64,000 nucleotides of DNA, taken from NCBI GenBank assembly GCA_016839585.1, contig JAEOTZ010000015.1, positions 1,000-64,999 of the forward strand. The letters run 5' to 3'. Each line of letters begins with the position of its first letter. The first letter of the stretch is position 1. Shown here piece after piece: positions 30,635 to 51,907 of this stretch. The DNA is from Promethearchaeota archaeon. GTDB lineage: Archaea; Asgardarchaeota; Lokiarchaeia; Sigyniarchaeales; SOKP01. The notes below the pieces were generated by a model. It had not been told where the DNA came from. It saw only the letters and a program-made list of their open reading frames with translations, and did not search any database. The position numbers and the translations under genes are program-made.

Positions 30635-32169
30635 GTTGAATATTTTGTTCTTATTTCTTCAGCAATTTTAGCAATTTTCTTAAGTTCTTCGAAGTTATTT
30701 TCTAAAATTGATTTCATTACACTAACTTTCAATTTTTTAATTTTTTCGAGAGTAATAGAAAATTGTTTACTGATTTCATTATAAAGTCCATCAATCTTAC
30801 TGTAAAGATCTTTAGCCTGTTTATTATCAAAAATCTCTGAATTAATAACCTTGCTTTGATAAGAATCATTCAGCTCACTTAACCATTTTCTACCTTCCTT
30901 CATTGCTGGGTAAAGGTTGTCAATTTGTCCTGTTATAACACTTTTTTCAAATTCAGTCTTATATTTATCAAATAGATTCTTAAAACAGTTGTTAATCTTA
31001 TTTTCTATAGCTTTAATATTAACATCTGGATTCATAAAGATAGTAACTGTATAATCTTCAAACCCAAAAACATGCATTTTTAAGTTTGTTCCCTTTAAAC
31101 TAAATCCAGTTAAATCTTGAATATTTAACTCTAAAGAAAATTTTTCTAATGCACTAATGAACATTGGAATAAGATCTAGTTCAACTGGAACAATACTACC
31201 ATCTGTTGGAACATTATTAGAAATGAATTCCTCAAGTGCATTTTCAAATAATTCTAATTTTGATAAATTTTTTCCATCCTTATCTGCTATAAACGCACCT
31301 ATAAATGGAGGTAATTTTCGATCAAGAGATGATTCTGAAATTATAGATTCTTCTCCAACGTTTGTTAAAATACTTGAAGAAAATTTTTGAAAAATGTCTT
31401 TATAAATATTTTTACCCTTCTCTGTTAAACTAAGTAATTCTTTTCCTTCTACATTAGAAACTTCAATATGTTTTTTTCTAACTAGACTTTCTATTAAGTA
31501 ATTAATCAATTTTTTAGGGCGATTCAACTTCTCACTAAGATTTTCTTTTGGAAGAACTACCTCTTTATCAATTTGATGTATTAACTTTAAAGATTCATCA
31601 ATTATATTGAAAAGTAATCCCTCATCACTAATCAGATCATGAAGACAAATTTTCATTATATCAATAAAATAGGAAAATGTTTTTGTAAAGTATTTTTTTT
31701 TTAAACTAGTAAATAAGAAACTTAATAATTTTTCTTTTAAGAACTCACTTTTAATGATTGATTTATAATCCCTAATTCGCTTTTGACTCACTAAATCGAT
31801 CTTATGTAAAAATACATAGATGATTGTAGAGGGAGTTAAATTATTTCTTATTTCTATTACTTTTTTGATAAATGCTGTGATATCATCGAAATTTGTTGTA
31901 ATGTCAATAACGATTAAAATTAATTTACTATCGTAAAAAATAGCTTTCTCATCTGTGTCTAACCATCTTTCATTCTCTTGACCTGCTAAATCAAATATTC
32001 CAACATCTTGATTTATACCTGGTAATCTTAGTATCAGCGATTCTTCGCCATATGTGGGCTCTAAAGTATACTCTAACAATTTATTTGAATTTTCCCCTTC
32101 AAAAAAGATTTTACGTAATGTAGTTTTTCCTGCACCAGAGGGTCCAATGAAAATTATTTTTTTACTCAT
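30631..32169 (-). CDS. Rag/Gtr1-like GTPase + winged-helix + roadblock/longin-like module + coiled coil
   Basis: G1 GPSGAGKTT, G3 IFDLAGQE and G4 FLHKIDL. Mid-region LINYLIESLVRKKHIEVSNVEGKELLSLTEKGKNIY is wHTH-like. FIGAFIADKDGKNL, IPMFISALEKFSLEL and YTVTIFMNPD form an alpha/beta module. The C-terminus is heptad-rich. Its ATG overlaps the stop of the upstream gene by 8 nt. Confidence 0.75.
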   Translation of the reverse strand: MSKKIIFIGPSGAGKTTLRKIFFEGENSNKLLEYTLEPTYGEESLILRLPGINQDVGIFDLAGQENERWLDTDEKAIFYDSKLILIVIDITTNFDDITAFIKKVIEIRNNLTPSTIIYVFLHKIDLVSQKRIRDYKSIIKSEFLKEKLLSFLFTSLKKKYFTKTFSYFIDIMKICLHDLISDEGLLFNIIDESLKLIHQIDKEVVLPKENLSEKLNRPKKLINYLIESLVRKKHIEVSNVEGKELLSLTEKGKNIYKDIFQKFSSSILTNVGEESIISESSLDRKLPPFIGAFIADKDGKNLSKLELFENALEEFISNNVPTDGSIVPVELDLIPMFISALEKFSLELNIQDLTGFSLKGTNLKMHVFGFEDYTVTIFMNPDVNIKAIENKINNCFKNLFDKYKTEFEKSVITGQIDNLYPAMKEGRKWLSELNDSYQSKVINSEIFDNKQAKDLYSKIDGLYNEISKQFSITLEKIKKLKVSVMKSILENNFEELKKIAKIAEEIRTKYST

Positions 32170-33490
32170 TTTTTTCGATTTTTTTTGAGTTTAAATAATA
32201 CAATTTTGTCAAATTCATTCTAATTTGACCAACAAGTCCAATTAACTTATTACTACTAAGGGATTCAGATATACATATTAAATTCTTAAGATTAAATCTT
32301 GGCAGGTTTAAATAATTCATAATTATATTAAGATTCATTGAACCTGAAATAATGAAATGTTCAATATTATCATTTAAAGACATTTCTTCAAAAGTTTGAT
32401 TTAATTGTGCAACAAGTTTATGAGAATGGTTTATGATTGTGGTATTGAAATCTTTAGACATAGCTTGAGCTATTATATTATCATTTTCGTTAGTTATAAA
32501 AAACATCGTTTTAGGTATATCAGTTATCAAATCATTCAATATTTCTTTTAAATAAATCGTCTCCCTTGAAAAGCTACTTAATATATCGTAGAATGCGTTA
32601 TATAAGCTATAAATTAAATTTGGATATATGCTAGTATAGAAAATTGGATATTTAAATTGATTTTTAATCAATTGAGTTATTTCAGAAAATTCATTTTTTC
32701 TATCTTCTTTCCTAATTAAATCGATTTTATGTATAAACAGCTTTATATTTATATCAAATGATTTTTCTTTAATAATATCAGAAATTCTCTTGATATCGTG
32801 AATAATCTCCTGTTGATTTGAAATCCATGTCGGATAATCAAAAAGATAAATAACTACATCAGTTCCCTCAAATGCCAAGATATGATCGTTATCATTCTCA
32901 TTCTCTAATAAATAGTTTAATTCCTGCCCAGAGGTATCGAATAAACCTAAAGTTAAATCTAACCATGAATACACTGAAGGAGATATTCCACGAGTAGGTT
33001 CAAGGGGATTATAGATTAAATCTTTGGGATTAAATCCTTCAAAAATGATTTTTTTAATACTTGTTTTTCCAGTTCCAGCTCTGCCTAATAATAAGATCTT
33101 CTTTGAAGTTGTTTTCTTAAAAAATTTGTCAATATTTCCTTGAAAAAAATCCTTTCTCTTATCTTTTTTTTTTTTTATAATATCTTTAGAAAATTCTAAG
33201 AATTGTTTCTTGATGTTAAATAGATTAAGTCTTTCTTTCTCTTCAATAATAAGCGTAATTATTTCATATCCAACTTCAGGAACACGGGATTTATCACAGT
33301 ATGATAAAATTGTTTGATTATCATAGTTAATCTCAATTAATTCTTCTTTATTAAAATCTTCATCATAAGCATGAGTCATATATATTTTATTAATCAGATG
33401 ATCTGAAAGTTTCAGGTTCTCGGGATATTTAAAATCTAAGATAGACCCGATTTTTTGATCCCAACTAAAAACTGCTAATCCTAAAATCAT
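32162..33490 (-). CDS. Longin-like N-domain + Rag/Gtr1-like GTPase + C-terminal Roadblock-like domain
   Basis: The N-terminus MILGLAVFSWDQKIGSILDFKYPENL is shared with ORFs 34297 and 44432. G1 GRAGTGKTS, G3 LFDTSGQE and G4 FIHKIDL. The C-terminus TMFFITNENDNIIAQAM, IEHFIISGSMNLNIIMNYL and NLICISESLSSNKLIGLVGQI is Roadblock-like. Confidence 0.75.
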   Translation of the reverse strand: MILGLAVFSWDQKIGSILDFKYPENLKLSDHLINKIYMTHAYDEDFNKEELIEINYDNQTILSYCDKSRVPEVGYEIITLIIEEKERLNLFNIKKQFLEFSKDIIKKKKDKRKDFFQGNIDKFFKKTTSKKILLLGRAGTGKTSIKKIIFEGFNPKDLIYNPLEPTRGISPSVYSWLDLTLGLFDTSGQELNYLLENENDNDHILAFEGTDVVIYLFDYPTWISNQQEIIHDIKRISDIIKEKSFDINIKLFIHKIDLIRKEDRKNEFSEITQLIKNQFKYPIFYTSIYPNLIYSLYNAFYDILSSFSRETIYLKEILNDLITDIPKTMFFITNENDNIIAQAMSKDFNTTIINHSHKLVAQLNQTFEEMSLNDNIEHFIISGSMNLNIIMNYLNLPRFNLKNLICISESLSSNKLIGLVGQIRMNLTKLYYLNSKKIEKNE

Positions 33491-33682: not shown

Positions 33683-34057
33683 TTGGTATATATGACAAAA
33701 AATGTGTATGTTATTGAGGATAATGAAAAAAATATGAAATTATTCAGAGCGATTTTAAAATTAATACCCGATTTAGAAATTTTTGAAGAAACCCGTGGAG
33801 ATCTAGGATTAGAATTAATAAAATCTGGAGAACCAGATTTGATTATCTTGGATATACAACTTCCTGAAATGAGTGGTATTGAAATTTGTGAAGAACTTAG
33901 GAAAATTGAGAAATTTAAAAGCACACCAATTATTGCAGTTACTTCCTTTGCTATGAAAGGAGATAAAGAAAGGATATTATCAGCAGGTTTTAATGAATAT
34001 ATATCAAAACCCATAAAAGTAAAAGAATTTAGAGAATTGGTAAACAGTTATATCTAG
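33683..34057 (+). CDS. Single-domain CheY-like response regulator
   Basis: VYVIEDNEKN, DLIILDIQLPEMSGIE, IIAVTSFAMKGD and YISKPI. At 124 aa it is a receiver domain only. Confidence 0.9.
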   Translation: MVYMTKNVYVIEDNEKNMKLFRAILKLIPDLEIFEETRGDLGLELIKSGEPDLIILDIQLPEMSGIEICEELRKIEKFKSTPIIAVTSFAMKGDKERILSAGFNEYISKPIKVKEFRELVNSYI

Positions 34058-34296: not shown

Positions 34297-35355
34297 TTGA
34301 AAGGAATTGTGATTTTAAATCTAGATAAAAAATCAGAACCGACCATAAATGCTCAATATCCACAAAATATTAGTGACGAATTAGGGGTTACAGATTCAAT
34401 GCTGGCAACTGTCTTCGATGAACATAAAAGTGTAAGGACAGGTCCTAATTATCTTGAAATGCAAATAAAACGGGATCTTAGTGTAGCAAGTTTCTTTACT
34501 GGTCATTCCTCAAAACACTTTATAGGGAAAGGAGATCATGTTATTACCATCTTTCTTTCTGACGAGGATATCATCCCTAGAAATTTTGAAGGCCAAGTTA
34601 GAAGAATCGCTTTTGAATTATTGCCTAAAAGAAAGGAAAAAGACTTTAAAAATCTATTAGCAAAATACTATGAATTATTAAATAAAGGAGAATTAGATGC
34701 ATATTGGCAGGAACGACAGGAATTGGAGCAAGATATAGTTGGAAAAAAAGAAAGAATAGATGATCTTGCTCAAAAAGTCTCTATGTTAGTATCTGATAGA
34801 TCAGAACATCTTAGAAACGTTCAAGCATTAAAAAATGAAGTAACTGAGTTATATAATAAATTAGAAAATTGGAGTTTACAAATGGCAGAACTTAATGAAT
34901 ATAATGCAAATTTAACAGCAAAAACAAGAGAATTAACTAAATTAACAAATAGTCAAAAACAGGAATTAGAACAAAAGGATGATCAGATCATAAAATTAAG
35001 AAAAATCTTAAGAGATAAAGATGAAATTGAGGAAGGAGCCGAAAAATTACTTGAACAAATTAAAAGATTTAAAGCTGAAAATGAAAATCTTAAAAACGAG
35101 ATAGAGAAAATGAATAAAACAAATAAAGATTTAAAATTTCAAGTTTTAAAATCAAATCGAGAGAGAGATTCCCATTTAGATACAATTACAGATCTAAAAT
35201 TAGATATGAGAAATCTAAAAGGACAAATATCATCTGAAGGGACTTTAAAAAATAAATTGAATGAAGAAATTGTTAATTTGAAAAAAGATTTAAAGGTTAT
35301 AAGGAGAGAAAGAGACCATTATCAAAAATTAGTGAAAAAACATAACCTCCTTTAA
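34297..35355 (+). CDS. Longin-like N-domain protein with ~210 aa C-terminal coiled coil
   Basis: N-terminal IVILNLDKKSEPTINAQYPQNI and LSVASFFTGHSSKH are homologous to ORF 44432 (GFIITEWTEDRGLAVTLNYPESL, SNVASFFTGMESERP). The C-terminal half is heptad-rich (LKNEVTELYNKLENW, KRFKAENENLKNEIEKMNK). No TM segment. Confidence 0.7.
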   Translation: MKGIVILNLDKKSEPTINAQYPQNISDELGVTDSMLATVFDEHKSVRTGPNYLEMQIKRDLSVASFFTGHSSKHFIGKGDHVITIFLSDEDIIPRNFEGQVRRIAFELLPKRKEKDFKNLLAKYYELLNKGELDAYWQERQELEQDIVGKKERIDDLAQKVSMLVSDRSEHLRNVQALKNEVTELYNKLENWSLQMAELNEYNANLTAKTRELTKLTNSQKQELEQKDDQIIKLRKILRDKDEIEEGAEKLLEQIKRFKAENENLKNEIEKMNKTNKDLKFQVLKSNRERDSHLDTITDLKLDMRNLKGQISSEGTLKNKLNEEIVNLKKDLKVIRRERDHYQKLVKKHNLL

Positions 35356-37049: not shown

Positions 37050-37249
37050 ATTTCCTCTTAAAAAAGTATTAAGTAAATATCATATTAATGTTAAGAAGAT
37101 TTTTATATTCCATAATTATACTAATTATCTATATAGATAATTGAATAATACTATTTACACAATTAGGAAATTAATAGTAAATTTGAATATTCATAAAGTA
37201 TAAAATTTTGAATTACATCAATCGTATAACCAGATAGTGAATCACAAAT

Positions 37250-38827
37250 TTGCCACGTAAAAAAATTATAATTGTGTGCTTAATAGGATTAATTGCAGTT
37301 GGTTCATTAGCATATGTATCATTTCTCTTTCTTTCACCCACACCAACACCTTCTAAACAATGGCTCGAAAATCCTAATTTTGATTCACCAATAGAACCGG
37401 TTTGGTTTTGGACTAATGGTACCCTAGGGGATAATTCAGATATAGACGCAACAACAAGCCCCGGTCAAATCAATCTTAGAGTTTTAGGAGAAAAGCAAAC
37501 GGTTACATTAATTTCAGGAACTCCAAATATGTCAAGATCACCAGGTTGGAAAAAAGTTCAAAATGGAATATATCAATATCCTGATACTGCTATCATCAAT
37601 TCTCAAGGATGTTATGTATCGCATGATTGGGCAGAAGATACAAACCAATTCCCAAGTGTTCACTTTAGAACTAACGTTAGTACAAATGTAGATATGTCAG
37701 ATTATCAAATTACTTCTGTAATGCTTAATGTTGAATTTAATGCTTCTATTGATGTTAATGTTGATACTCCAAATGATAATGGAGCAGGTTCAGATTTTTG
37801 GGAATATTTTGGAACAGGAGATTATATTGAATTTTATACTGAGATTTCTGATATTAATTACATTGAATCCTATGTTGTAGCATATAATAGAACAAGATAT
37901 TTAGGACAGAATAGCCCTCAATATACAATAATTAATAACAGTTATCTTTTTACTTATAATCAAAGTATTTTAATTGATGCTTTAAACACAGCACTCAAAA
38001 AAGATCCTAACTATTCTAATTTTACAATAATATTAGGAATAAATATATATTCGGAAGATAATATACAGGGTACTGATCCAGATGATTATGATGATTTGTA
38101 TATAAAAACTTGTAATTTAACAATAACTTACAAGAAAATTGTTAATGAATTTACCACTATCTCTTGGAATCAGATTAGTGATCCAATTGAAGGTAAAAAC
38201 CTTAGAATAAGTAAAGCTAATTTTAATTTTAAATATATGATTAATAAACTTTGGCCTGATCAAGCTCCACTTTCAGAATTAAGATTTTATATTAACAATA
38301 AATTGTACAGTGAAGAAACAATTAAATTAATTTCTGCTAATATGTCTTTTAAAGAAGTAAAAGATGGCGGATTTGATGTAACCACTTATCTGGAGAAAGA
38401 TATTGATATTTTGATTTCAATTGAACTGTTTTTGAAAGAGACTTTTGAATTAGAAGAAATATTTACTATATCATTTGATGATGTGTATCTTTATATAAAA
38501 ATAGTTGAAATTGAGGCAGAAATGAGTCCAATAGTTTACCTTTTGGGAGGTGCAATTGTTGGGCTTTTGGTAGCTTTTGGATTGTATTTTAAAATTTTTC
38601 AATATCCCCCATTAGTAAGAAAGATTAGGAAAATAAATTCAAAAATTAGAAAAGGAAGAAAAACAAAGCCTTTATTAATTGCTCAACGGCAAACTATTGT
38701 AGAGAATAATTTCCAAGAAACAATAAAAGCCCTAAATATAGCAACCATTGAAGATAAAAAGCTTAATAATTCTGATAAAAAAGAACAAGATAAAATAATT
38801 AAAAAGGAGGGAGAAATTTCTCTCTAA
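37250..38827 (+). CDS. Bitopic sequon-rich surface protein, paralog 1, with conserved basic cytoplasmic tail
   Basis: N-terminal hydrophobic segment IIIVCLIGLIAVGSLAYVSFLF and many N-x-S/T sequons. The ectodomain ends ISFDDVYLYIKIV. C-terminal TM PIVYLLGGAIVGLLVAFGLYF is followed by the tail YPPLVRKIRKINSKIRKGRKTKPLLIAQRQTIVENNFQETIKALNI. Confidence 0.75.
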   Translation: MPRKKIIIVCLIGLIAVGSLAYVSFLFLSPTPTPSKQWLENPNFDSPIEPVWFWTNGTLGDNSDIDATTSPGQINLRVLGEKQTVTLISGTPNMSRSPGWKKVQNGIYQYPDTAIINSQGCYVSHDWAEDTNQFPSVHFRTNVSTNVDMSDYQITSVMLNVEFNASIDVNVDTPNDNGAGSDFWEYFGTGDYIEFYTEISDINYIESYVVAYNRTRYLGQNSPQYTIINNSYLFTYNQSILIDALNTALKKDPNYSNFTIILGINIYSEDNIQGTDPDDYDDLYIKTCNLTITYKKIVNEFTTISWNQISDPIEGKNLRISKANFNFKYMINKLWPDQAPLSELRFYINNKLYSEETIKLISANMSFKEVKDGGFDVTTYLEKDIDILISIELFLKETFELEEIFTISFDDVYLYIKIVEIEAEMSPIVYLLGGAIVGLLVAFGLYFKIFQYPPLVRKIRKINSKIRKGRKTKPLLIAQRQTIVENNFQETIKALNIATIEDKKLNNSDKKEQDKIIKKEGEISL

Positions 38828-38851
38828 ATAATATTAATTGAGTGAGTTAAA

Positions 38852-40423
38852 TTGAATCAAAAAATAAGCAAAATTTTTAGCATTATGATCTTATTTGTTC
38901 TTATTACAATCACTTTTCAATATCGTAATTTTTATCAGAATAAAGGGAATTTAGATAATGTAAATTTAGAAAAGGAAATTAATATTTCAGCAGGAGGAGA
39001 GTGGTTAAAAAATAACGATTTTTCTTCTGATGAATATTGGAATTTTATTGAAGGTGAGAAAGGAGATTGTTCCGCAATTAATTCAAGTACAATTGGAGGT
39101 ACAGCAAATATTGAGATCTTAGGAGAAATGAAAAATATAACATTAATTTCAGAAACACCAAATAAATCTAGTTCTCCTGCTTGGGATATATTTACAAATA
39201 AGAATTTTTTATTACCTAAGACAAGAGAGATTAATGATGATGGATGTTATGTATCACATTTTTTGGATGAAAATATTGGTGGCGATCAAATAAATAACTA
39301 TCCCAGTATTCATTTTAAAAAGAACATCAGTTTAACTGACGATATGTCAAAATATGTAATAACTTCAGTTTCGCTGAATGTTATTGTAAATGCAAGTGTA
39401 GATGCGGATGTAGATACTCCAAATGATGATTATTCTGGTCCAGATCCTGATCAAAAAGCAATTCTAGGTGATTCCATTACCTTTTATGTTGAGATTACTG
39501 ATTTAGAAAATAGCTATACCTTTCGTTTAGCAGAAAATAAAACCACATATTTGGGACAACAAAGAACTGGTTACCCAACAATTTTAAACATAACAGACAG
39601 TCCGTTAGATAATAAAGATCAGCAATTTTTAATATCTGCTTTAACTTCAGTTTTTGAATCAGATAACCACAATTTTACTATCATATTAGGAATGGATATT
39701 TATTGTGAAGATAATGATACAGGAGGAGATCAAGATACATGGAACTATTTAATTATTAAAAGTTGTGATTTAATTATTACCTATGAAAGAAAAATTGAAA
39801 AATTCACTTCTATATCATTAAATCAAATAGGCAATAAAATAATTGGAACTAATATCCAAATTAAAGCAGGATCATTTAATTTTAAATATAAAATAGATCA
39901 GTCTTGGCCAAGCGATTTATCTCCATTCTCAGAAGTCAGAACCCTACTTAATAATAATCCATATGTAGAGACCATCAAATTATCTTCTGCTAATGGTTCC
40001 TTTCAAGATGCTAAAGCAGGTGGATATGATGTTAAATCCCTAATTTTAAAAGATGTTAATATATCCGTTTCAATTGAATTCTATATAGCAAATACATTCG
40101 CTCTTAATAGAACAATAACTATTTCAATTGATGATGTTTCCCTTGTTATTTCTTATGTTTCTATTAAACCTGGGATTGATATGACTCCATATATTATTGG
40201 ATTAACTTCTGGAATTATTGGACTTGTTACTGCTTTTAGCTTATATCAATTTCATTTCAAATATCCTCCATTTGTAAGAAAAATAAGAAAATTAAAAAAA
40301 AAAGTTGGAAAGGCAAAAAAACTAAAACCAATTATTGTTAGTGCACATAATGAGATTATTAAAAATAATTTTCAAGATCAAATTAAAATTTTAAATATAG
40401 AATTACCTCAACTGAAAAAATAA
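38852..40423 (+). CDS. Bitopic sequon-rich surface protein, paralog 2, with conserved basic cytoplasmic tail
   Basis: Colinear with paralog 1: GCYVSH, YPSIHF, NASVDADVDTPNDD, NFTIILGMDIY and ISIDDVSLVISYV. C-terminal TM, then the tail YPPFVRKIRKLKKKVGKAKKLKPIIVSAHNEIIKNNFQDQIKILNI. Confidence 0.75.
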   Translation: MNQKISKIFSIMILFVLITITFQYRNFYQNKGNLDNVNLEKEINISAGGEWLKNNDFSSDEYWNFIEGEKGDCSAINSSTIGGTANIEILGEMKNITLISETPNKSSSPAWDIFTNKNFLLPKTREINDDGCYVSHFLDENIGGDQINNYPSIHFKKNISLTDDMSKYVITSVSLNVIVNASVDADVDTPNDDYSGPDPDQKAILGDSITFYVEITDLENSYTFRLAENKTTYLGQQRTGYPTILNITDSPLDNKDQQFLISALTSVFESDNHNFTIILGMDIYCEDNDTGGDQDTWNYLIIKSCDLIITYERKIEKFTSISLNQIGNKIIGTNIQIKAGSFNFKYKIDQSWPSDLSPFSEVRTLLNNNPYVETIKLSSANGSFQDAKAGGYDVKSLILKDVNISVSIEFYIANTFALNRTITISIDDVSLVISYVSIKPGIDMTPYIIGLTSGIIGLVTAFSLYQFHFKYPPFVRKIRKLKKKVGKAKKLKPIIVSAHNEIIKNNFQDQIKILNIELPQLKK

Positions 40424-40693
40424 AAATTAAAAAGATAAAAAATCATAAAACCAGAATAAATGAAATTTAATAAATTAATATAGATAAAAATTAACGAGAG
40501 AGCAAAAACAATATTAGTGAGATTTATTTGAACATTATTTTTTGGTTAAATACATATAAAAAGATTTTTATATACCATAATTTATTTTTTATTCGTTATT
40601 TAAAAGTTTTATATAAAATAAAAATCAATATATCAATATTTAAAAAATAAATAATAAAAAATGTCGATATTTTGTATTTCTTGAGGGATTTAA

Positions 40694-43600
40694 ATGAAGA
40701 AGAATAATATTAGGGTTAAAGGTCTGATAATATTACTTTGCATAGTTTTATCTTCGTTTCCACTTTCTTATTTGCTTCCAATAAGTACTTCAAATGATTC
40801 GAATGATGTTGAAGGGATTCCCCCTTCTGAAGAAATACCCAATATTTTTACTTCTGATACTTTAGCTACTGATAATTCTTTCACAGGTATAGGTGCTCCT
40901 TGGAACGTAACTCATTATGCTAATTATACAAAATCAAATTTAGGAGTTAGTTTTTATAATAATTCTTATGATGATACTCATGCAAAAGTAGAATTATATG
41001 GATGGAATGGATACCAATTAAATTCTACAATAAAGAATTTATACGATACACGAAATTGGATTAATGGGACTTTTCATTGTGGTTCCTATGGAGGATCACC
41101 ATCTGGATCTGATGATAGTGAATATGTTGCTAATTGGACATTCCATGATGGAGATATTGATGACCCTAATCCTACAAGTGGAAATTATTTTGATGGTTCA
41201 ACTTCTATATCTGATTATGAAGATAGCTTGGAATTAAGGGTTGATGAATATGGTAGTGGTAATTATGATGTTGGGGATAAATGTTGGTGGGAAACTAGTA
41301 TTCAAATAGATAGAGGGGATGTAGATGAAGCATGGTTAAATTTTGCAGTATATCCAAAATATAGTGATGGTTATAATAACCACTGGGTACTACAAATTAT
41401 TATCAATGGTAAAATCATTTGGGGTACTGGTCTTCAATCAATGATAGATGCATCTGGTAATTCTAATGGTCAATGGTATAATCCATATCCTATCTACTTA
41501 GATGGTAATGATGAACAATTATTTCCTGAAGGAGTTAAAAATCTCAATGTTACTTTCGAATTTAAAAGAGTTAGTGGAACTGCTCCGGGTGCTTATTGGG
41601 ATTACTATACTGTACTCTTTGATAATGTTTCGTTAATTGTAAAATCTAAAGCAAAACCATCTCAACTAGAATTGCAATTAAACAATGAAGATGTAAAAGA
41701 TAATGTTAATTATGGTGAAGGTAATCTTGGTATTACAGGTAATTGGAATGGAAGTATCCAATCATCAGTAGTTGCTAATTTTAGTAGTGATCTGAATTGG
41801 CCTTTAACTTATGAAGAAGACGGGAGTTGGATAAGTTATAAAATAGAACTTGAGACAGATTTGAATTTGTTTACAAATAAATTTAGCCCTGAAACCTATT
41901 ATACAGCTGATCCAGATCTAAATTATCAAGGCTCAGCTTTTATTGTATCTAATAATAGCAATGTGAATTGGACAACGTATGCACATATGGAGATTCCAGC
42001 AGGATATGAAGAAACAAATATGACTGTTGAATACTCTTCAGATTACAATTTAATAGGCGTATTCTTCTCTCAAAATCCTAATTCTATTTCTCAAACTACT
42101 ATAACAGAATATGGAAACAAAAAGATTTTAAATATTCCAGTAAGTTCCATAACAAGTAATACAAATGGATTTTGGAAGTTAACAGCAGTATCACCTAATT
42201 ATTGTTCAGAGTTAAATATGTATGCCGGTCCTACTGCTACTGGACCGTGGGTGCTTAATAATAAATTCCTAAGTGGAGAATATATTAACATTACTGGAGA
42301 CATTTATAATTCCGCTTTGGTTTCTGGATATATTCAACAAACCAAGGCCCAGCTTCAAATACGATTTCCAAATGGTTCGATATGGACATCAAGAACTCAA
42401 ACAAAACTAGTTGATAATACCGGAACGGTCTATTTTGATCCTATTATGATCCCTGATAATGTTCCAAATTATAAAGCAGGAGAATATGATGCGGTTATCA
42501 CTTGGAATAACTCATATTCATCCTTTGGTTCAAATGAAACAGGGATTATTTATAAAAAGTTTACAGTAATCCATGATTCTCTTCTTTATCCTGATGAAGG
42601 TGTATATTTCATTGAAAATGTAATTGACGATAGAATAATTAATATTAAAGTATCATTTAGAGATTTAATAGATGGTACAGCTATTGCAAATGCATATGTA
42701 TATACAGATTTTACAGGAGTCGATGAATCATTAATCCAAACTAGTCCAGGATTTTATTTATATGAATTTAATGCTTCTAAAGCTGAGGCAGGAAACAATA
42801 CTGTAACGATTTATGCTAATTCAAGCTATTATTTGAATAAAACCATAAATATTACAATTGATGTAATTAAAGAGACAATTTTGACGGTTGAAACTGATTT
42901 TTTCACTACTCCTTGGAAACAAAATTTTACTGTGCGATTTAATTATACAGAAAAAAATAATCCTCTAAATTGGATTGATACAACAGACATTACTATTGAT
43001 GAATGGCTTGGTGATTATCATTTAACACAACCTAGCGTTGGGCATTATGAATTAGAATGTAATACATCTGCTTATGCTGCACTCACACTTCAATCCTTCA
43101 TTATTTCAATAGATCCGTACAAATATGAACCCCAATCTGTTCTAATTAGAGTCCAAATTACTGAATTATCGTCTTCTTTAAAATTATTATTAAATGGTAA
43201 TGAAACATCTAATAATGGTAAAATTACAGTTGAACTTGATGCCGTCATAAATGTGTCTATAACTTTCAGTGATCAGTTAACAGGTAAACATCTACCAAAT
43301 GCAACAGTTAGTTTAATAGGAATAGGACCAAATAGATATTTTGATGAAAAAAATAACTATTACAATTATAGTATAAAAGCTACTGATTTAGGTGAAGGAA
43401 TTACTGTATTAACTGTATTTGCAGAAGTCCTTAATTATCAGCCTCAAACCATACAATTTTGGATTGAAGTGGGTAAAAGATCCTCGCAATTACAATTATT
43501 TTTAGACGGTGATCTTAAAACAGATGATCTAGTCATCTATGAAATTACAATAAAAGAATTCTTAAATATAACTGTGAAATACATGGATAATGGATCACAA

Positions 43601-44431
43601 CATATTACCAATGCAACAGTACAATTGACAGTACAATTGATAGGAGGGAAATTAAATTTCAATTTAACAGAACATACTGGCTTAGGGCAATATTATATCC
43701 CAGGCGGTCTTGATACAACTATTTTAGGTACTGGAGCATATGAATTTTCAATTATCGCTTATGCACCCAATTATATACCTAAGACTACAGGAGGAGTAAT
43801 TACTATCACTAAAATAGTTGGAACTATTAGCCGAGAAGATGGAGGTGCTCAAATAGAAGTTGATGTCGGAGAAGATGTATTATTAAAAATTGTCTTAAAA
43901 GATCCTTCAAATAATACTATAAAGGGTGCCACTGTAACATATAGTTGGGCTTTTGGACAGGGAGAACTTGATGATCCTGATAATGATGGGATTTACAATG
44001 TAACTATATTTGATGTTCCAGAAGGAGTTCGTGACATAACAATAAATGCTATTATCGGAGATGATTATGCTTTTCAAGAGTATAAAATAACATTGATAGT
44101 AAGTAGACCATCAGTATCTCCTGGACCTAATTTAGGTTGGCTTATTTCTTTATTAGTTTATGGATTTATTGGTGTAATAGTAGTTGTTGGTACGATTTTT
44201 ACCCTATATATTAAACGTTGGCGATTCCCGCCTTTAGTTAGGAAGATAAGAGCTCTAAGGAAAAAGGTTAGTAAAGCAAAAAAGACAAAACCAGTTATGA
44301 TAAATAAGCGAGAAGAGATTATAAAAAATAATCTGCAAGATAGTGTGAAAATTTTAAGTTTAGAATTAATACAACCTGAGAAAATTGATAAAATTGAAAA
44401 TTTTAATATAAAAAAAGAGGAAGTGAATTAA
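40694..44431 (+). CDS. Large (1245 aa) bitopic sequon-rich surface protein, paralog 3, with the same cytoplasmic tail
   Basis: Signal/anchor LIILLCIVLSSFPLSYLL. An N-terminal jelly-roll-like module ends VLFDNVSLIVKS. Long beta-rich (Ig-like repeat-like) region with dense N-x-S/T sequons. TM LISLLVYGFIGVIVVVGTIFTLY is followed by the tail FPPLVRKIRALRKKVSKAKKTKPVMINKREEIIKNNLQDSVKILSL. Confidence 0.75.
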   Translation: MKKNNIRVKGLIILLCIVLSSFPLSYLLPISTSNDSNDVEGIPPSEEIPNIFTSDTLATDNSFTGIGAPWNVTHYANYTKSNLGVSFYNNSYDDTHAKVELYGWNGYQLNSTIKNLYDTRNWINGTFHCGSYGGSPSGSDDSEYVANWTFHDGDIDDPNPTSGNYFDGSTSISDYEDSLELRVDEYGSGNYDVGDKCWWETSIQIDRGDVDEAWLNFAVYPKYSDGYNNHWVLQIIINGKIIWGTGLQSMIDASGNSNGQWYNPYPIYLDGNDEQLFPEGVKNLNVTFEFKRVSGTAPGAYWDYYTVLFDNVSLIVKSKAKPSQLELQLNNEDVKDNVNYGEGNLGITGNWNGSIQSSVVANFSSDLNWPLTYEEDGSWISYKIELETDLNLFTNKFSPETYYTADPDLNYQGSAFIVSNNSNVNWTTYAHMEIPAGYEETNMTVEYSSDYNLIGVFFSQNPNSISQTTITEYGNKKILNIPVSSITSNTNGFWKLTAVSPNYCSELNMYAGPTATGPWVLNNKFLSGEYINITGDIYNSALVSGYIQQTKAQLQIRFPNGSIWTSRTQTKLVDNTGTVYFDPIMIPDNVPNYKAGEYDAVITWNNSYSSFGSNETGIIYKKFTVIHDSLLYPDEGVYFIENVIDDRIINIKVSFRDLIDGTAIANAYVYTDFTGVDESLIQTSPGFYLYEFNASKAEAGNNTVTIYANSSYYLNKTINITIDVIKETILTVETDFFTTPWKQNFTVRFNYTEKNNPLNWIDTTDITIDEWLGDYHLTQPSVGHYELECNTSAYAALTLQSFIISIDPYKYEPQSVLIRVQITELSSSLKLLLNGNETSNNGKITVELDAVINVSITFSDQLTGKHLPNATVSLIGIGPNRYFDEKNNYYNYSIKATDLGEGITVLTVFAEVLNYQPQTIQFWIEVGKRSSQLQLFLDGDLKTDDLVIYEITIKEFLNITVKYMDNGSQHITNATVQLTVQLIGGKLNFNLTEHTGLGQYYIPGGLDTTILGTGAYEFSIIAYAPNYIPKTTGGVITITKIVGTISREDGGAQIEVDVGEDVLLKIVLKDPSNNTIKGATVTYSWAFGQGELDDPDNDGIYNVTIFDVPEGVRDITINAIIGDDYAFQEYKITLIVSRPSVSPGPNLGWLISLLVYGFIGVIVVVGTIFTLYIKRWRFPPLVRKIRALRKKVSKAKKTKPVMINKREEIIKNNLQDSVKILSLELIQPEKIDKIENFNIKKEEVN

Positions 44432-45559
44432 ATGCCAAGAGGATTTATAATAACTGAATGGACTGAAGATCGAGGTTTAGCTGTTACGCTAAATTATCCT
44501 GAAAGCTTGGATATTGATTTAGATGATATGATGCGTATTTTCTATGCCCATATAACGGGGGCAGGAGAAGCTGGAAATGTCTTAGTGAGATTAGAAAAAG
44601 CACGTTCTAATGTGGCGAGTTTTTTTACCGGAATGGAATCTGAAAGGCCTATAATGGTAAATTTAATGTTAGAGTTAGGAGAAGACCCTGACATGTTTGG
44701 TGAAGCAGTAATTCGAGAAATTAATGAAACAACATTAACTTATCTCCGACAAATGGGAACAAGTGTTTCCCAAACTTATGACATTGTAAACGAATTAAAA
44801 AACTATCTAAAAAACGCATTATTTCTTTTAGAGAGGTTGAAAAATTTAACAAAGGAACAAAGATTAGCACAAATTTATACTAGTGAAAAGGGTAGAAAAA
44901 TTTTAGAGGTTTTACAAGATAGACCATTATCCAGGAAAGAATTACAAGCTATTCTAGAAGAAAAATTGAGCAAAATAATATCGAATATTGAAGTTACATT
45001 AGATCCTTTTGTAAAAACGGGAATTATCAAACAAGATTGGATTGAGGGTGATTCAGATATTTCATTATTTTTACTTTCTGATTTTACTATTTTCAGAGCA
45101 CCTGTAGCTAAACTAGTTGAGGACGCGAGAAAAAAGCTTCCTAATCCCGAATTAGCTACAATATATCTCGAAGAGGTTAATAATTTCTTTAAAACCTACA
45201 AACCCAGCTTAGAGGATAATCTAAAGATAGCTAAAAATATGATAAATCCTGACAAATATGATTTTATTACGCTTTTTAGAGAACGAGCGTATCCCATAAA
45301 TAAAATTCCTAAAGGACCTGGTGAAAGCGTTGAGCAAATTGGGGAATTTTTAAAGAGTATGGAGCAAGATCAAATTATAAAACTAATAAGGGATAGCAAA
45401 GGTACTTTATGGGTATTCTTATTTACTGATGTTGTAATTCCAACATTTTATCCTGAATATATCATTGAGAAAATTCGACAGCATCGCGTGGACGGGGCAC
45501 TTAAAAAAGAATATGCAATTAAACATTTAGAATTACTCGAAGAAGCATATAAGAAATAA
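44432..45559 (+). CDS. Cytoplasmic longin-like N-domain + winged-helix-like protein
   Basis: The ATG directly abuts the stop of the 1245-aa gene. The N-terminus is homologous to ORFs 34297 and 32162-33490. Mid-region GRKILEVLQDRPLSRKELQAILEEKLSKIISNIEVTLDPFVKTGIIKQ is wHTH-like. Confidence 0.65.
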   Translation: MPRGFIITEWTEDRGLAVTLNYPESLDIDLDDMMRIFYAHITGAGEAGNVLVRLEKARSNVASFFTGMESERPIMVNLMLELGEDPDMFGEAVIREINETTLTYLRQMGTSVSQTYDIVNELKNYLKNALFLLERLKNLTKEQRLAQIYTSEKGRKILEVLQDRPLSRKELQAILEEKLSKIISNIEVTLDPFVKTGIIKQDWIEGDSDISLFLLSDFTIFRAPVAKLVEDARKKLPNPELATIYLEEVNNFFKTYKPSLEDNLKIAKNMINPDKYDFITLFRERAYPINKIPKGPGESVEQIGEFLKSMEQDQIIKLIRDSKGTLWVFLFTDVVIPTFYPEYIIEKIRQHRVDGALKKEYAIKHLELLEEAYKK

Positions 45560-45577
45560 TCAGGTGGTATATTAAAG

Positions 45578-47497
45578 GTGTCGCATGAAGTAGTATCAGC
45601 AACAAAACATGTTTTAGAACTTATTGGATTAGCGCATGATGAAGTTGAGACTTATTTTAAAATAACGGGAAGAGGTCCCGTAATGACTGGTGAAATTGCA
45701 TTACTAGCTGATGTTGATGAAGAAAGAGCAGTACAAATAGCAAATAATTTATTTGAAAAGGGTTTAGTTAGAGAAATTCCCGGAAAAACACCATTTTATA
45801 TGGCTTTACCTCCATATGCCGCGCTTTTAAATCAAATTCACTATTTCAAAGATACAATTAAAACATTTCAGCAAGTTTCTCCTATAAATTTGCAAGCACG
45901 ATTCGATTCCATGGAAGAACACTCAGCAAAATTGAAAAAATTGGATGATTATAAAACTTATATTCAGGTTATGAAAACTAAGCTTCCTGCTCAAATTAAA
46001 ACTCAGTTTGATAGATTTGAGAGTGAACTTGAACAAGTAAAGAGATTCCATGATGTTAAAAGATTTATTTTAAACTTAAAAGAGATTGTACCAGCAGATA
46101 TTGAGAAAGAATTTGGAATAATGGAAACCAAATTAGAAACAATTAAATCCGAGATTTCAAATAAGTTTGAAACTCAATTTCGAATTGGAGCATTAAAAGC
46201 CATGGCTGAAAAAATTGTTTCTCGTGTTGTTTCTGAACAATTTAGTGAATTAACAGATTATTTTAAAACCAAATTCGTCGGAACGACACAAAATATGCTT
46301 GATCAAGTTATTAATCAATTGGGGAGTCTTTCTGATACTGCTGGTGAAATAAGCATAGATTTAGGTACTGTATTTATAGATATAGAATCTGGATTAAAAA
46401 ATACTTTAGAAGATCTAGAAAGCAGAGTTACTGGTGTATATGATGACATTATAGCAGGTATTGCTGAATTAAAGAATTTATTCCAGAAAGAAATTTTTGA
46501 AACTCTTCAAACCGATATAATAAATAATATCATTACTCAACTAGATGGCGCTGAAGCAACAATGCAAGAATTCTGGGATCGTTCTAAGGAAGCTTCAATG
46601 TTAAGTTTTAAAGATGTATGGTTTGTAAGGAGTATCGAGGGAATGAGAGCACAAATTAATGAAGCAATCCCTCGGGTTAAAATGAGAATTTATATTATTG
46701 CACCAAAACTAGAAGATGTTGACTTCATTGCTCTTTCTAAGGTAAAAAAACATGTAAACGTGAGGATTTCAACTAATTTTGATTTAAGTAATGCTGATGA
46801 TGTTAATATCTTAAATCAAATCAGCCAATTTCCTAATTTTGATGTAAGATATTATCCAAGAGAAAATATATGGTCAATAAATAGAGATTTTGAAGAAGTA
46901 ATAGTTTGTGTAATTTCTAAAGATATAGACCTTGGAACTATGCAAGTAGCAGGTATGGGTTCTGTGCTTGATGAGCATATTAAACTATTTGCTGGCTTAC
47001 TTGAAGATGTGTGGATGCAAAGTAAAAAAATGGATCAGATTGGATTTGTACCTCAACAATATCAACAACCCATAAAGCCAGAGATATCAAAAGAACCAGA
47101 GCGAAGGGTTTCAATACCAAAAGAAAAACCTGAAGTCAAAGCAGAAGAGATTATTAAACCAGAACCCGTTAAACCTATCGAAATACCCTTGGAAAAAATA
47201 GAAGTTAAGTCCCAGACAGAGACTTATACCGGTACTATTAGTCCAGCTGAAGCTACTCTTTCATATCAATTCGATAGTATAATAAAAAATCTAGAAACAC
47301 TACCTGGATATGAATTAGCTGCAGGTTTACACAATCTACAAGACGAAATTCTCGAAAAAAAAGGTTTTAGTGCTATTCTACGACAAATAAGAATAGAGGT
47401 CACTGCTCTCAAATCTATACCTAAGATATTAGACCTTTCCGAGAAAGATATGTTATTAAAAAAAATTACATTTTGGAGAAGTAAATTACAAATATAA
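45578..47497 (+). CDS. TrmB-like HTH protein with long coiled-coil insertion, TrmB-C-like domain, and Pro/Glu/Lys-rich linker
   Basis: N-terminus LIGLAHDEVETYFKITGRGPVMTGEIALLADVDEERAVQIANNLFEKGLVREIPGKTPFYMALPP matches the TrmB-type wHTH pattern. About 250 aa of heptad-rich sequence follow. RIYIIAPKLEDVDFIALSKVKKHVNVRIST resembles the TrmB C-domain. The linker reads KPEISKEPERRVSIPKEKPEVKAEEIIKPEPVKPIEIP. GTG start. Confidence 0.7.
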   Translation: MSHEVVSATKHVLELIGLAHDEVETYFKITGRGPVMTGEIALLADVDEERAVQIANNLFEKGLVREIPGKTPFYMALPPYAALLNQIHYFKDTIKTFQQVSPINLQARFDSMEEHSAKLKKLDDYKTYIQVMKTKLPAQIKTQFDRFESELEQVKRFHDVKRFILNLKEIVPADIEKEFGIMETKLETIKSEISNKFETQFRIGALKAMAEKIVSRVVSEQFSELTDYFKTKFVGTTQNMLDQVINQLGSLSDTAGEISIDLGTVFIDIESGLKNTLEDLESRVTGVYDDIIAGIAELKNLFQKEIFETLQTDIINNIITQLDGAEATMQEFWDRSKEASMLSFKDVWFVRSIEGMRAQINEAIPRVKMRIYIIAPKLEDVDFIALSKVKKHVNVRISTNFDLSNADDVNILNQISQFPNFDVRYYPRENIWSINRDFEEVIVCVISKDIDLGTMQVAGMGSVLDEHIKLFAGLLEDVWMQSKKMDQIGFVPQQYQQPIKPEISKEPERRVSIPKEKPEVKAEEIIKPEPVKPIEIPLEKIEVKSQTETYTGTISPAEATLSYQFDSIIKNLETLPGYELAAGLHNLQDEILEKKGFSAILRQIRIEVTALKSIPKILDLSEKDMLLKKITFWRSKLQI

Positions 47498-50938: not shown

Positions 50939-51907
50939 ATGATTAGAAAATCCACGATAAATAGATTTAGGAATATACGTTGGAAGAGAAAAGATACATT
51001 TGCGATAGTTTCAATTTTCTTTATTGGAACAATCATGACTTCAGTGAGTTTTTCTTTTAACCAACTTTATGATATTTTTTTTAGCATTTGTTTAGGTTTA
51101 TTTATCGGGGGGATTCTATTGTCTATTATATCAATATATTTAGCTCAAATGGAATCTAGTCTTTCAGGAGAAGGTGAATTGGATGTTGAGATGGATGTAG
51201 ATGCTGATATTGATGTAGATGTTGATGCAGATATTGACGTAGATGTTGATGCTGATATTGATGTGGATATTGATGTCGATGTTGATGCAGATATCGACGT
51301 GGATATTGATGCTGACGTCGATGTTGATATTGATTATGATATGGGGGTGGAAATAGAATTTGATGCGGTTGAAATTGATGCGGATGTTGACGTGGATGCG
51401 GGGGTAGAAGTGGATTCGGATATGGATATTGATATGGAAGTTGAGACTGAAATTGATACTAGCTTATCCGATATTACCCCCGCACCAATAATGCTCTTAT
51501 TATCCACAGCATTTTTAGTTTTTGGTATTTCTGGTATAATATTGTATTATTCTGTCAACGAAACAGTAAAATTTGTGATACTTTTTATAACACCCCTATT
51601 AGCATATATATTTCTAAAGTGTGTTAATTATGGGTGGAAAAAACTAGCAAAGTCGAGATACTATAGCATATTATCAACCCTGAACTTAATTGGAAGAAAG
51701 GGAGAGATTATTTTACCGGTTGATGAGAGGGGAGGAGTCATAAAAGTTCTCTCCAATACACCTATGAAATATGAAAGGTTACATGTTAAACCGTTAATTG
51801 AGGGATCTGAATTTGAAAGAGGGGATACTGTTTATATTTGTGATACAAAAAATGGTTATTTGTTAGTTGATAATAATAAAAAATTAATTAAAAATAGGAG
51901 GTGGTAA
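50939..51907 (+). CDS. NfeD/YqiJ-like membrane protein with long alternating Asp-hydrophobic repeat
   Basis: N-terminal TM segments, then ~95 aa of (D/E)-(V/I/A/M) dipeptides. More TM segments follow, then a C-terminal OB-like NfeD domain (GRKGEIILPVDERGGVIKV, GDTVYICDTKNGYLLV). It lies upstream of an SPFH gene, the classical NfeD-SPFH pairing. Confidence 0.7.
   Translation: MIRKSTINRFRNIRWKRKDTFAIVSIFFIGTIMTSVSFSFNQLYDIFFSICLGLFIGGILLSIISIYLAQMESSLSGEGELDVEMDVDADIDVDVDADIDVDVDADIDVDIDVDVDADIDVDIDADVDVDIDYDMGVEIEFDAVEIDADVDVDAGVEVDSDMDIDMEVETEIDTSLSDITPAPIMLLLSTAFLVFGISGIILYYSVNETVKFVILFITPLLAYIFLKCVNYGWKKLAKSRYYSILSTLNLIGRKGEIILPVDERGGVIKVLSNTPMKYERLHVKPLIEGSEFERGDTVYICDTKNGYLLVDNNKKLIKNRRW
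51176..51462 (+). repeat. Coding tandem repeat, 6-nt period (GAT-NTN) with a ~24-36 nt higher-order unit
   Basis: gatgtagatgttgatgcagatattgac-type units recur across this span. They translate to DVDADIDVDVDADIDVDVDADIDVDIDVDVDADIDVDIDADVDVDIDYD and degenerate toward the 3' end (EIEFDAVEIDADVDVDAGVEVDSDMDIDMEVETEID). Confidence 0.9.

Follow-up and report, generated by a model that had tools for sequence, protein, structure and literature searches.

What do the longin proteins of Asgard archaea act on? These archaea, the prokaryotes closest to eukaryotes, have many eukaryote-like longin, roadblock and small-GTPase proteins, and to our knowledge almost nothing is known about the targets of any of them. 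The question takes concrete form in a cluster of five genes (A to E) within a 64,000-nt stretch of contig JAEOTZ010000015.1 from a Promethearchaeota archaeon (hereafter the window, meaning the whole stretch analysed; GC ~30%, AT-rich), where three genes for surface proteins with similar cytoplasmic tails precede the gene of a predicted longin protein, D, and that of a protein with a TrmB-type DNA-binding domain, E. We find that the tail is essentially specific to this cluster, that tail genes, D and E accompany one another in many loci, and that surface protein, tail and a D-like module also occur within single polypeptides, suggesting that D works with the tail proteins on their cytoplasmic side.

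Organization of the cluster

37250-38827 (+): gene A, a 525-aa bitopic surface protein with an N-terminal signal or anchor, a sequon-rich ectodomain, one transmembrane segment and a basic tail
38852-40423 (+): gene B, a 523-aa paralog of A, with topology and tail as in A
40694-44431 (+): gene C, a 1245-aa bitopic surface protein, with transmembrane segment and tail as in A and B
44432-45559 (+): gene D, a 375-aa cytoplasmic protein
45578-47497 (+): gene E, a 639-aa acidic protein

All five open reading frames (ORFs) had been proposed in an earlier note on this DNA and were recovered here on the + strand at these coordinates, as were two junctions it had pointed out, the stop codon of C directly against the ATG of D and the gap of 18 nt between D and E. 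The ATG of D immediately follows the TAA of C and has a GAGGA motif just upstream; the D-to-E spacer contains AGGTGG, with E starting at GTG, and the 24-nt A-to-B spacer contains the Shine-Dalgarno (SD)-like GAGTGAG. The stop/start abutment and the SD-like motifs indicate translational coupling.

Surface proteins with a common polybasic tail

A Kyte-Doolittle scan gave A, B and C two hydrophobic segments each and no more, the first N-terminal and the second C-proximal; D, E and U, a longin-bearing protein encoded upstream of the cluster (see below), have none. N-x-S/T sequons are ~2x as frequent in the ectodomains as expected from composition-preserving shuffles (z = 2.7 for A, 2.8 for B and 5.2 for C), an enrichment absent from D, E and U in the same comparison. 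The hydrophobicity scan and the shuffles bear out the predicted arrangement of an N-terminal signal or anchor, a sequon-dense ectodomain and one C-proximal transmembrane segment, and A, B and C are probably type-I surface proteins, predicted to be N-glycosylated.

The three proteins had been taken for paralogs, which holds for A and B (45.5% identity over ~480 aa, full length); C resembles them solely across the transmembrane segment and tail (42-46% over ~96 aa). Iterated profile searches of related loci gathered 135 targets for the A/B ectodomain family and 19 for the N-terminal module of C, and homology between the two was rejected, the families being non-overlapping with jackhmmer in both directions. 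A jelly-roll module ending in [FI]D[DN]V[SY]L had been thought common to all three proteins: the end motif does occur once in each, and the non-overlapping N-terminal families leave these six residues as the sole support for the module itself. One transmembrane segment and tail on ectodomains without detectable homology strengthens the idea of a portable tag.

No Pfam, NCBIfam, PADLOC or PHROG family matched A, B or D, and no PADLOC or PHROG family matched C or E; Ig-like hits near the membrane in C were below threshold. An origin as a defence system or from a virus was rejected on the empty PADLOC/PHROG searches of A, C, D and E. PGF-CTERM/archaeosortase processing of A, B and C was likewise rejected, there being no PGF motif before the transmembrane segment and 50-90 residues after the tail motif.

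The tails lie at the following positions:

38603..38740 (+): tail of A, YPPLVRKIRKINSKIRKGRKTKP plus a distal helix-like half
40262..40399 (+): tail of B, basic as in A
44225..44362 (+): tail of C, FPPLVRKIRALRKKVSKAKKTKP plus a distal half

A tail peptide reads LYQTHFKYPPLVRKIRKLRKKVRKGKKTKP..., and the tail motif occurs only three times in a six-frame translation of the window; the three tail sequences quoted in the earlier note are exact. Over 111 tail-bearing ORFs, the conserved core reads ...F(T/S)LYQxHFKYPPxVRKIRKLRKKxxKxKKxKP. The description of a nearly invariant tail of ~45 aa proved overstated, with strong conservation limited to a ~24-aa polybasic motif, KYPPxVRKIRKLRKKxxKxKKxKP. 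Compared all against all, the tails are ~68-70% identical in this 24-residue basic half and only ~25% in the distal half, and the first 24 residues of 102 tails from other genomes have a median identity of 62.5% to the tail of C. By manual count, the distal halves of A, B and C are 43-48% identical to one another, and the A and B tails 52% over 46 aa, hardly above their ectodomains. The first 24 aa carry a net charge of +10 to +11, complementary to the acidic D and E (pI ~5.2). In sum, the earlier note is partly confirmed: its ORFs, topology, sequon enrichment and tail are real, and its claims about paralogy, tail length and operon structure (below) have been corrected.

Tail genes, D and E occur together

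Co-occurrence was followed in both directions, in a D-first set of 75 loci from a scan of species-representative genomes and a tail-first set of 41 metagenome loci. Tail genes were detected by locus-based hidden Markov model (HMM) scans; a word-indexed tail-profile search gave nine fragments and missed the window's own proteins. Close relatives of D number ~400, nearly all of 374-378 aa and from Asgard metagenome-assembled genomes (MAGs). In the D-first set, one to three tail-HMM-positive ORFs lie directly upstream in 72/72 loci with >130 nt of sequence upstream of D, and the last of them usually ends at -4, its stop abutting the ATG of D. An E homolog is found downstream of D in 67 loci, and in 53/53 where at least 5 kb of downstream sequence is present. 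Clusters differ in how many tail genes they have (1 to 3), with D and E staying single.

Starting from the tail, D comes directly after the last tail gene in 31/41 loci. Five of the 41 have 0-96 nt of contig left after the tail gene. In one locus (L105) the next gene is another paralog running off the contig, and in another (L098) an SDR fragment is followed by a new signal-peptide ORF, an order that mirrors SDR-then-A in the window, with D not detected before the contig end. Two loci, L080 and L104, are real exceptions. In the tail-first scan D is thus the next gene wherever contig is left, two or three exceptions aside, and the tail is essentially specific to this cluster, the opposite of a tail found widely on unrelated membrane proteins with no conserved neighbours. 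The idea that the tails have a cytosolic partner in common, for which D and E are the candidates, gains support from co-occurrence that is positive both ways (72/72, 53/53 and 31/41), and from the fusions described below.

As to the exceptions, a tail-bearing gene with a truncated tail (KYPRIVRKVRKLRKNIRKGKKTKQLLMIKCHKMLL, then stop) at L104:6000-6503 is followed by a LysM phage-like 'tail protein X'-like ORF in place of D; this contig is either chimeric or carries an insertion that disrupts the cluster. Variants of the canonical arrangement were also seen. A single MAG, DZ1M.51, contains two canonical clusters (L040 and L054) whose D orthologs share 65% and 60% identity with D of the window, so the whole module can be duplicated. 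Between D and E, L036 and L038 have an additional tail gene (~1350 aa), and gene order in the module is therefore not rigid.

Distant loci and fusion proteins

After clustering at 50%, an exhaustive profile search left 309 representatives of the D family, which come from Loki-, Hel-, Sigyn-, Odin-, Njord- and Jord-archaeal MAGs. Pairing of a tail protein with D persists at D identities of 30-42% (L122, L124 and L126), in different Asgard classes and with rearranged orders and orientations. In L124, a 616-aa tail protein (HMM 40.6 bits) is followed by D (41.6% identity) and then by an E-like protein (42.5%). In L122/L123, a 1779-aa tail protein with ...YFSIPPLVRKINALLSAIRKNKRLP (32.6 bits) precedes a 261-aa small GTPase, with a D-like gene (33.5%) 12 nt later and a 445-aa E homolog (E = 3e-26) convergent to the D-like gene. 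In L126, a 411-aa GTPase and a D-like gene (30%) come before a 2395-aa tail protein, which overlaps by 4 nt and carries ...KIPPLVRKIDSTIKGIK after its transmembrane segment; the same protein (L126:10125-17312) has faint FG-GAP (integrin-alpha-type beta-propeller) and CarboxypepD_reg hits. The grouping is partial elsewhere: L120/L121 comprises a D-like gene (31%), a GTPase of 190 aa in convergent orientation and an E homolog of 921 aa (E = 1.6e-63), with no tail gene within ~7 kb, and in Ca. Odinarchaeum LCB_4 (L125) a D-like gene is followed by a 136-aa protein and then by a bitopic protein of 1552 aa whose basic stretch beside the membrane the tail HMM does not recognise.

Surface protein and D are joined in one polypeptide in six inspected fusions from the 50% clustering (P0215, P0241, P0246, P0261, P0234 and P0240), each consisting of a giant ectodomain, a transmembrane segment, a K[IL]PxFVKKVRxxKK tail and, after a linker of ~85 aa, an entire D-like module. 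By the search table, P0265 and P0270 are two more long hits with the D module at the C-terminus. P0241 shares its contig with a canonical cluster, which marks the fusion as a paralogous system; three genes for small GTPases flank it. At the level of sequence, the ectodomain-tail-D fusions are Rosetta-stone evidence for coupling between D and the tail, and together with the rearranged but persistent pairings they make the best case for an action of D on the cytoplasmic side of the tail proteins.

D modules occur in other company too. P0253 and P0296, adjacent on a 247-kb contig of a Helarchaeota MAG, have a complete D-like module fused to SIR2_2 and TPR repeats; this fusion gave the only hit to the PADLOC SIR2/TPR defence models and suggests that the D module can also be put to use as sensor or adaptor in another, possibly defence-related, setting. 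P0190 and P0195 combine repeated N-terminal helix-hairpin-helix modules with the C-terminal winged-helix half of D and have no longin, so the two halves of D can occur separately.

Predicted structure of D

AlphaFold2 modelled D with confidence from a 130-sequence alignment (pLDDT 88.8, pTM 0.80); a 19-sequence alignment had given an unusable pLDDT of 52.7. The model comprises a longin domain (aa ~1-110), a connecting helix, a winged-helix-like unit (~141-214), a helical region, a second winged-helix-like unit (~300-335) and C-terminal helices. Its N-terminal domain (pLDDT ~72-92) has the beta-beta-alpha-beta-beta-beta-alpha order of longins (DSSP on the model: E4-11, E15-22, H30-41, E49-54, E59-65, E74-81, H91-108) and resembles solved longins. 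Foldseek searches of the PDB returned FLCN (6ulg_N, E = 5e-4) and NPRL2 in GATOR1 (E = 7e-4, probability 0.99, over ~370 columns at a TM-score of only ~0.25), with Npr2 in SEAC also ranked high; the Lst4 longin 4zy8 (TM-score 0.57, target-normalised), the Lokiarchaeal longin 8yqg (0.50), the Fuzzy subunit of Fuzzy-Inturned (CPLANE), DENND10 and SMCR8 were further top matches. The model and the fold search confirm the predicted combination of longin-like and winged helix-turn-helix (wHTH) units.

Among 119 diverse family members the D signature is G4, W10-[D/T]-[E/D]-x-x-G15, Y22-P23-E24, N60 and S63-Y-[Y/F]-T-G67 (W10-T-E-D-R-G15...Y22-P-E in the window's D), with W10 present in 96/119, D11 in 57/119 (T in the window's D) and G15 in 100/119. 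The [F/W]-x4-G-x7-P-E spacing is identical in human NPRL2 (F15...G20...P28-E29). By sequence spacing, the family also has the W-D pair five residues before the loop glycine that marks the C9orf72 subtype; in C9orf72 itself W33-D34...G38-P39 are essential (PMC12290439).

By its predicted fold, D is a longin of the FLCN/NPRL2/C9orf72 structural class. The known members with the closest likeness, NPRL2/NPRL3 (GATOR1/SEACIT), FLCN-FNIP (Lst7-Lst4) and C9orf72-SMCR8, share this fold, the best PDB matches being FLCN, NPRL2/Npr2 and Lst4. NPRL2 is additionally similar in its whole-length Foldseek alignment and [FW]-x4-G-x7-P-E spacing, and C9orf72 in the W-D-x3-G spacing of D-type longins (PMC12290439). 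Where relatives of D are annotated at all, databases label them 'wHTH domain-containing' or 'ArsR family'. NPRL2/3, too, join a longin domain to a winged-helix-containing C-terminal domain. No Folliculin match was found for D in Pfam, and a PDB profile search found no NPRL2. Asgard NPRL2-like longin families and longin-Rag fusions have been described (Liu et al., bioRxiv 10.1101/2020.10.19.343400), and D probably belongs to one of these asCOG groups; longins with GP and an Arg finger are known from Heimdallarchaeia (Traffic 2025, PMC12290439).

Association of D-type longins with small GTPases

Four genes upstream of the cluster bear on the partners of D:

26985-27866 (+): a third Gtr1/RagA-type GTPase, 5 kb further upstream of the G2/G3 pair
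30631-32169 (-): G2, a Rag-like GTPase with a long C-terminal region and an 8-nt overlap with G3
32162..33490 (-): G3, a D-type longin (FSWDQKIGS...YPE) fused to a Gtr1/RagA-type GTPase
34297..35355 (+): U, a D-type longin without the W/G motif plus a ~230-aa coiled coil

In G3, the D signature falls within the first ~108 residues (MILGLAVFSWDQKIGSILDFKYPENL...; E = 8e-14 against the D-longin HMM at aa 1-108), and a Gtr1_RagA domain follows (Pfam 1.1e-27 at aa 131-347). In addition, small-GTPase genes lie within one or two genes of a D-like gene in 4/7 distinct contexts. D-type longins thus resemble eukaryotic longin GTPase regulators in being fused or adjacent to Rag/Arf-like GTPases, and these sequences make a suggestive link to small GTPases, which the earlier note had not foreseen and which is probably the key to the mechanism. 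U (D-longin HMM E = 1e-11) is present upstream of the cluster in 21/40 loci with at least 9 kb of upstream flank; it appears related to D by domain, its membership of the module not being established. The overlapping G2/G3 pair is reminiscent of a Rag-like GTPase pair reported in an operon of MK-D1 (PMC10933270).

Domain composition of E

E consists of a TrmB wHTH (aa 14-79), a ~250-aa amphipathic helical insert, a conserved alpha/beta domain (aa ~340-485), a poorly conserved low-complexity P/E/K linker and a conserved ~70-aa C-terminal domain. The HTH scores 33.3 bits against PF01978 (cut-off 25.6), is present in 24/24 E-family members (best E = 3.6e-11) and aligns in PDB profiles to the solved TrmB 3qph (E = 1e-6) and to TrmBL2; Pfam and PDB profiles together uphold the description of E as a TrmB-type HTH protein split by a long helical region, ~250 aa of helix. 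The insert has sub-threshold apolipoprotein/apolipophorin-like amphipathic-helix hits. Beyond the N-terminal wHTH, the likeness to TrmB and TrmBL1/2 extends to a weak, non-significant in-register match to 3qph residues 114-156, the start of the TrmB effector domain. E differs from these regulators in its ~250-aa insert, P/E/K linker and extra C-terminal domain, and in having no TrmB sugar-binding (effector) domain detectable by Pfam at aa 325-500 (E <= 10); against the NCBIfam TrmB equivalog it reaches 22.7 bits, the cut-off being 600. One distant E homolog has a weak N-terminal match to the D-type longin (E = 3e-5).

A shared promoter-like element and two probable transcription units

Two near-identical copies of a 22-nt promoter-like element precede A and C:

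37096..37117 (+): element 1, AAGATTTTTATATTCCATAATT, BRE (B recognition element)/TATA-like, 133 nt upstream of the A start
40561..40582 (+): element 2, AAGATTTTTATATACCATAATT, 112 nt upstream of the ATG of C

The element has the form AAGATTTTTATAT(T/A)CCATAATT (AAGATTTTTATAT..CATATT), also written AAGATTTTTATATWCCATAATT, and occurs twice in the window against 0.02 copies expected. An identical element lies ~113 nt upstream of the C ortholog in L002, and across 1.5 Mb of related loci 41/49 matches (<=4 mismatches) precede a tail-gene ORF of the same strand by 60-210 nt. Its distance of >100 nt from the start codon implies long 5' untranslated regions or an operator function. The cluster had been called a five-gene operon, an overstatement given the AT-rich gap of 270 nt between B and C and the same element before both A and C, which make two co-regulated units likelier than one operon; these are probably A-B and C-D-E.

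How the module may work

The reading that we prefer, with a rough probability of 0.55, is that the tail docks a cytoplasmic complex of D and E that probably works with small GTPases, so that surface proteins would be coupled to intracellular responses. In this mechanism, one to three type-I surface proteins with fast-evolving and even non-homologous ectodomains would share a portable transmembrane segment and polybasic tail (LYQxHFKYPPxVRKIRKLRKKxxKxKKxKP), which would form a docking site at the membrane for the acidic D/E complex. The longin of D would most likely be a platform or regulator for a small Rag/Arf/Ras-like GTPase, as eukaryotic longins act, and could pair with another longin, for example one fused to a Rag-like GTPase as in G3; E would be a scaffold, a transcriptional output or both. 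Binding of the tail by D/E, the coupling to GTPases and the direction of signalling are what we infer from gene order, tail specificity, the fusions, the predicted fold of D and the HTH of E, and the module would connect surface receptors or adhesins to responses under GTPase control.

Several observations weigh against this reading. The 75 loci are fairly closely related, with an SDR gene in 35/40 and a DUF6786 gene in 28/53, and the median identities of these enzymes (SDR 77%, DUF6786 70%) show neighbours as conserved as D (69%) and E (61%); the notion that D is exceptionally conserved was rejected on this comparison. With flanking enzymes equally conserved and nearly as syntenic, synteny by itself is weak, and the case rests on the distant loci and the fusions. 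Similarity among tails of one genome does not significantly exceed that among tails of different genomes (p ~ 0.07), and concerted within-genome evolution was rejected as a signal of co-evolution; the polybasic stretch next to the membrane could also do no more than bind anionic lipids. With wHTH units in both, D and E could be regulators of the usual DNA-binding kind. In the canonical Loki cluster the operon lacks a GTPase gene. The three Rag-like GTPase genes of the window lie 11-17 kb upstream and do not recur as conserved neighbours in the 10-kb flanks of other loci, so a conserved linkage to them was rejected for these flanks. Asgard genomes are GTPase-rich (Liu et al., 10.1101/2020.10.19.343400), and adjacency of D-like and GTPase genes can therefore arise by chance. 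As for D itself, its longin did not reach significant sequence homology with the human/yeast NPRL2 longin (hhalign P = 0.067), the structural match being the only significant one, and D gave no Pfam NPR2 match (E <= 1; E <= 10 on sub-regions). The GP motif is lacking, the residue after G15 being L, A or T rather than P; the non-catalytic partners NPRL3 and FNIP2 likewise have no GP (PMC12290439). Where NPRL2 has Arg78 in the alignment, the 119 family members do not conserve an arginine throughout: R58 occurs in 29/119, and R53 in 50/119, reaching >=90% among close orthologs. Without the proline and a family-wide arginine, catalytic GTPase-activating (GAP) activity of D is doubtful, and D may, on the model, be a non-catalytic platform subunit.

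The same features separate D from NPRL2 and FLCN, namely the lack of significant sequence homology, a global TM-score of ~0.25, and the absence of the GP proline and of a family-wide arginine finger. Eukaryotic longin complexes differ further in that they are not encoded with, nor known to dock on, a conserved surface-glycoprotein tail. Longins among the Asgard eukaryotic signature proteins (ESPs) come from the same organisms and belong to the same domain class, G3 being one of their longin-Rag fusions; Asgard longins have been reported alone, with the NPRL2 C-terminal domain or fused to two-component domains. In MK-D1, genes for GTPases and for longins do not as a rule share an operon (Tran et al. 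2024, PMC10933270), and gene order rarely gives clues to the function of Asgard longins and GTPases (PMC10933270). The literature that we searched does not mention the tail motif, the tail-protein/D/E cluster or the ectodomain-tail-longin fusions. The domains are of known kinds, and tail-tagged surface proteins wired to an ESP-type longin appear to be undescribed. By analogy, the longin subunits of adaptor protein (AP) complexes that read cargo tails, and integrins with talin/kindlin under Rap1, offer a comparable logic of a short tail on diverse ectodomains, a dedicated partner and small GTPases, with the faint FG-GAP repeats of the L126 tail protein as a loose parallel to integrins. Unlike a true relationship, the comparison with these receptor-tail adaptors is conceptual, no homology of tail, D or E to them having been detected.

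The module would be an exception among Asgard longins in that one longin subtype is tied to identifiable membrane proteins by a defined 24-residue tail, with natural fusions in support and the longin-Rag fusion pointing to the likely class of partner. What these longins do then becomes a matter of concrete binding, localisation and GTPase assays with the tail peptide, D, E and co-encoded GTPases. Lokiarchaea without an S-layer are covered in 'complex surface proteins' (Rodrigues-Oliveira et al., PMC9834061), and the module nominates genes for these structures seen by cryo-tomography. Were the coupling real, recognition of receptor tails by a longin adaptor would predate eukaryotes. A tentative extension, with the odds clearly against it, makes the module a prokaryotic forerunner of eukaryotic membrane-anchored longin-GTPase platforms, either a direct ancestor or an analogue of their receptor-tail/adaptor/GTPase logic. 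The tail would then recruit an NPRL2/C9orf72-like longin that pairs with longin-Rag or Arf-like GTPases, and with a scaffold or output protein derived from TrmB, turning extracellular contact or nutrient cues into intracellular responses, much as GATOR1 and FLCN work on lysosomal membranes or cargo tails are recognised.

Alternative explanations

The best-placed alternative, which we nevertheless regard as unlikely, is that D and E are conventional DNA-binding regulators of the adjacent surface genes, perhaps through the promoter-like element, with E as a TrmB factor and D as a one-component regulator built of a sensor domain and a wHTH, and that the tail is kept for something else, for instance topogenesis, lipid binding or retention in the membrane. 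Regulators commonly adjoin their targets, the 22-nt element before each unit is highly conserved, and the TrmB HTH of E exceeds the Pfam cut-off in 24/24 members and matches TrmB and TrmBL2; the C-terminal units of D resemble wHTH regulators of the ArsR/HlyU/Phr/CodY type in Foldseek, in keeping with the ArsR-family or wHTH annotation that pipelines give its relatives. However, in giant surface proteins the fusion of a D-like module behind the transmembrane segment and tail locates D at the membrane, its top fold matches are GTPase-regulator longins rather than the sensor domains of transcription factors, and its longin subtype is fused to a Rag-like GTPase. The tail motif PPxVRKIRK is also far more specific than a generic positive-inside signal and essentially restricted to the cluster, and the 250-aa amphipathic insert and extra domains of E are atypical for TrmB regulators.

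Somewhat less probable still is a role for D and E as dedicated machinery for biogenesis, sorting or positioning that reads the tail as a cargo signal and relays nothing. Like longin cargo adaptors or the SRX domain of the signal recognition particle (SRP) receptor, to which an analogy can be drawn, they would direct where tail proteins are inserted, clustered or delivered, protrusions included, or how they are turned over. The co-occurrence and fusions fit this explanation as they fit tail docking with GTPase coupling. A tail that is a portable tag on non-homologous ectodomains and is encoded by 1-3 genes per cluster beside single D and E genes would suit it as well, as would the many complex surface proteins that Lokiarchaea bear on protrusions, without an S-layer (PMC9834061). 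Yet no known insertion or sorting factor proved homologous in searches of Pfam, NCBIfam and PDB profiles, the permanent fusion of a D module accords poorly with an adaptor that recycles, and the HTH of E has no obvious role in sorting. Finally, inherited synteny of close genomes without functional coupling, the tail being a relic of a 3'-end duplication of an ancestral gene, could draw on the equally conserved and syntenic flanking enzymes and on the recent paralogy of A and B, but it is very improbable and largely refuted by pairing that survives at 30-42% D identity in rearranged loci of different Asgard classes, by independent fusion proteins, by the translational coupling that the abutting stop and start with SD-like motifs indicate, and by a tail kept on non-homologous ectodomains while the ectodomains diverge.

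Other genes of the window

A PAS-PAS histidine kinase (28487-30634, +) and a stand-alone response-regulator receiver (33683-34057, +) are interleaved with the Rag-like GTPases and longins, which fits the remark that NPRL2-like longins associate with two-component signalling (Liu et al., 10.1101/2020.10.19.343400). Downstream of the cluster, a gene at 50939-51907 (+) encodes a membrane protein with an unusual insertion, a long acidic (D-V/D-I)n repeat (DVDADIDVDVDADIDV...), and by eye a putative NfeD-type C-terminus; it is followed by an SPFH/Band-7 gene (52242-53411, +).

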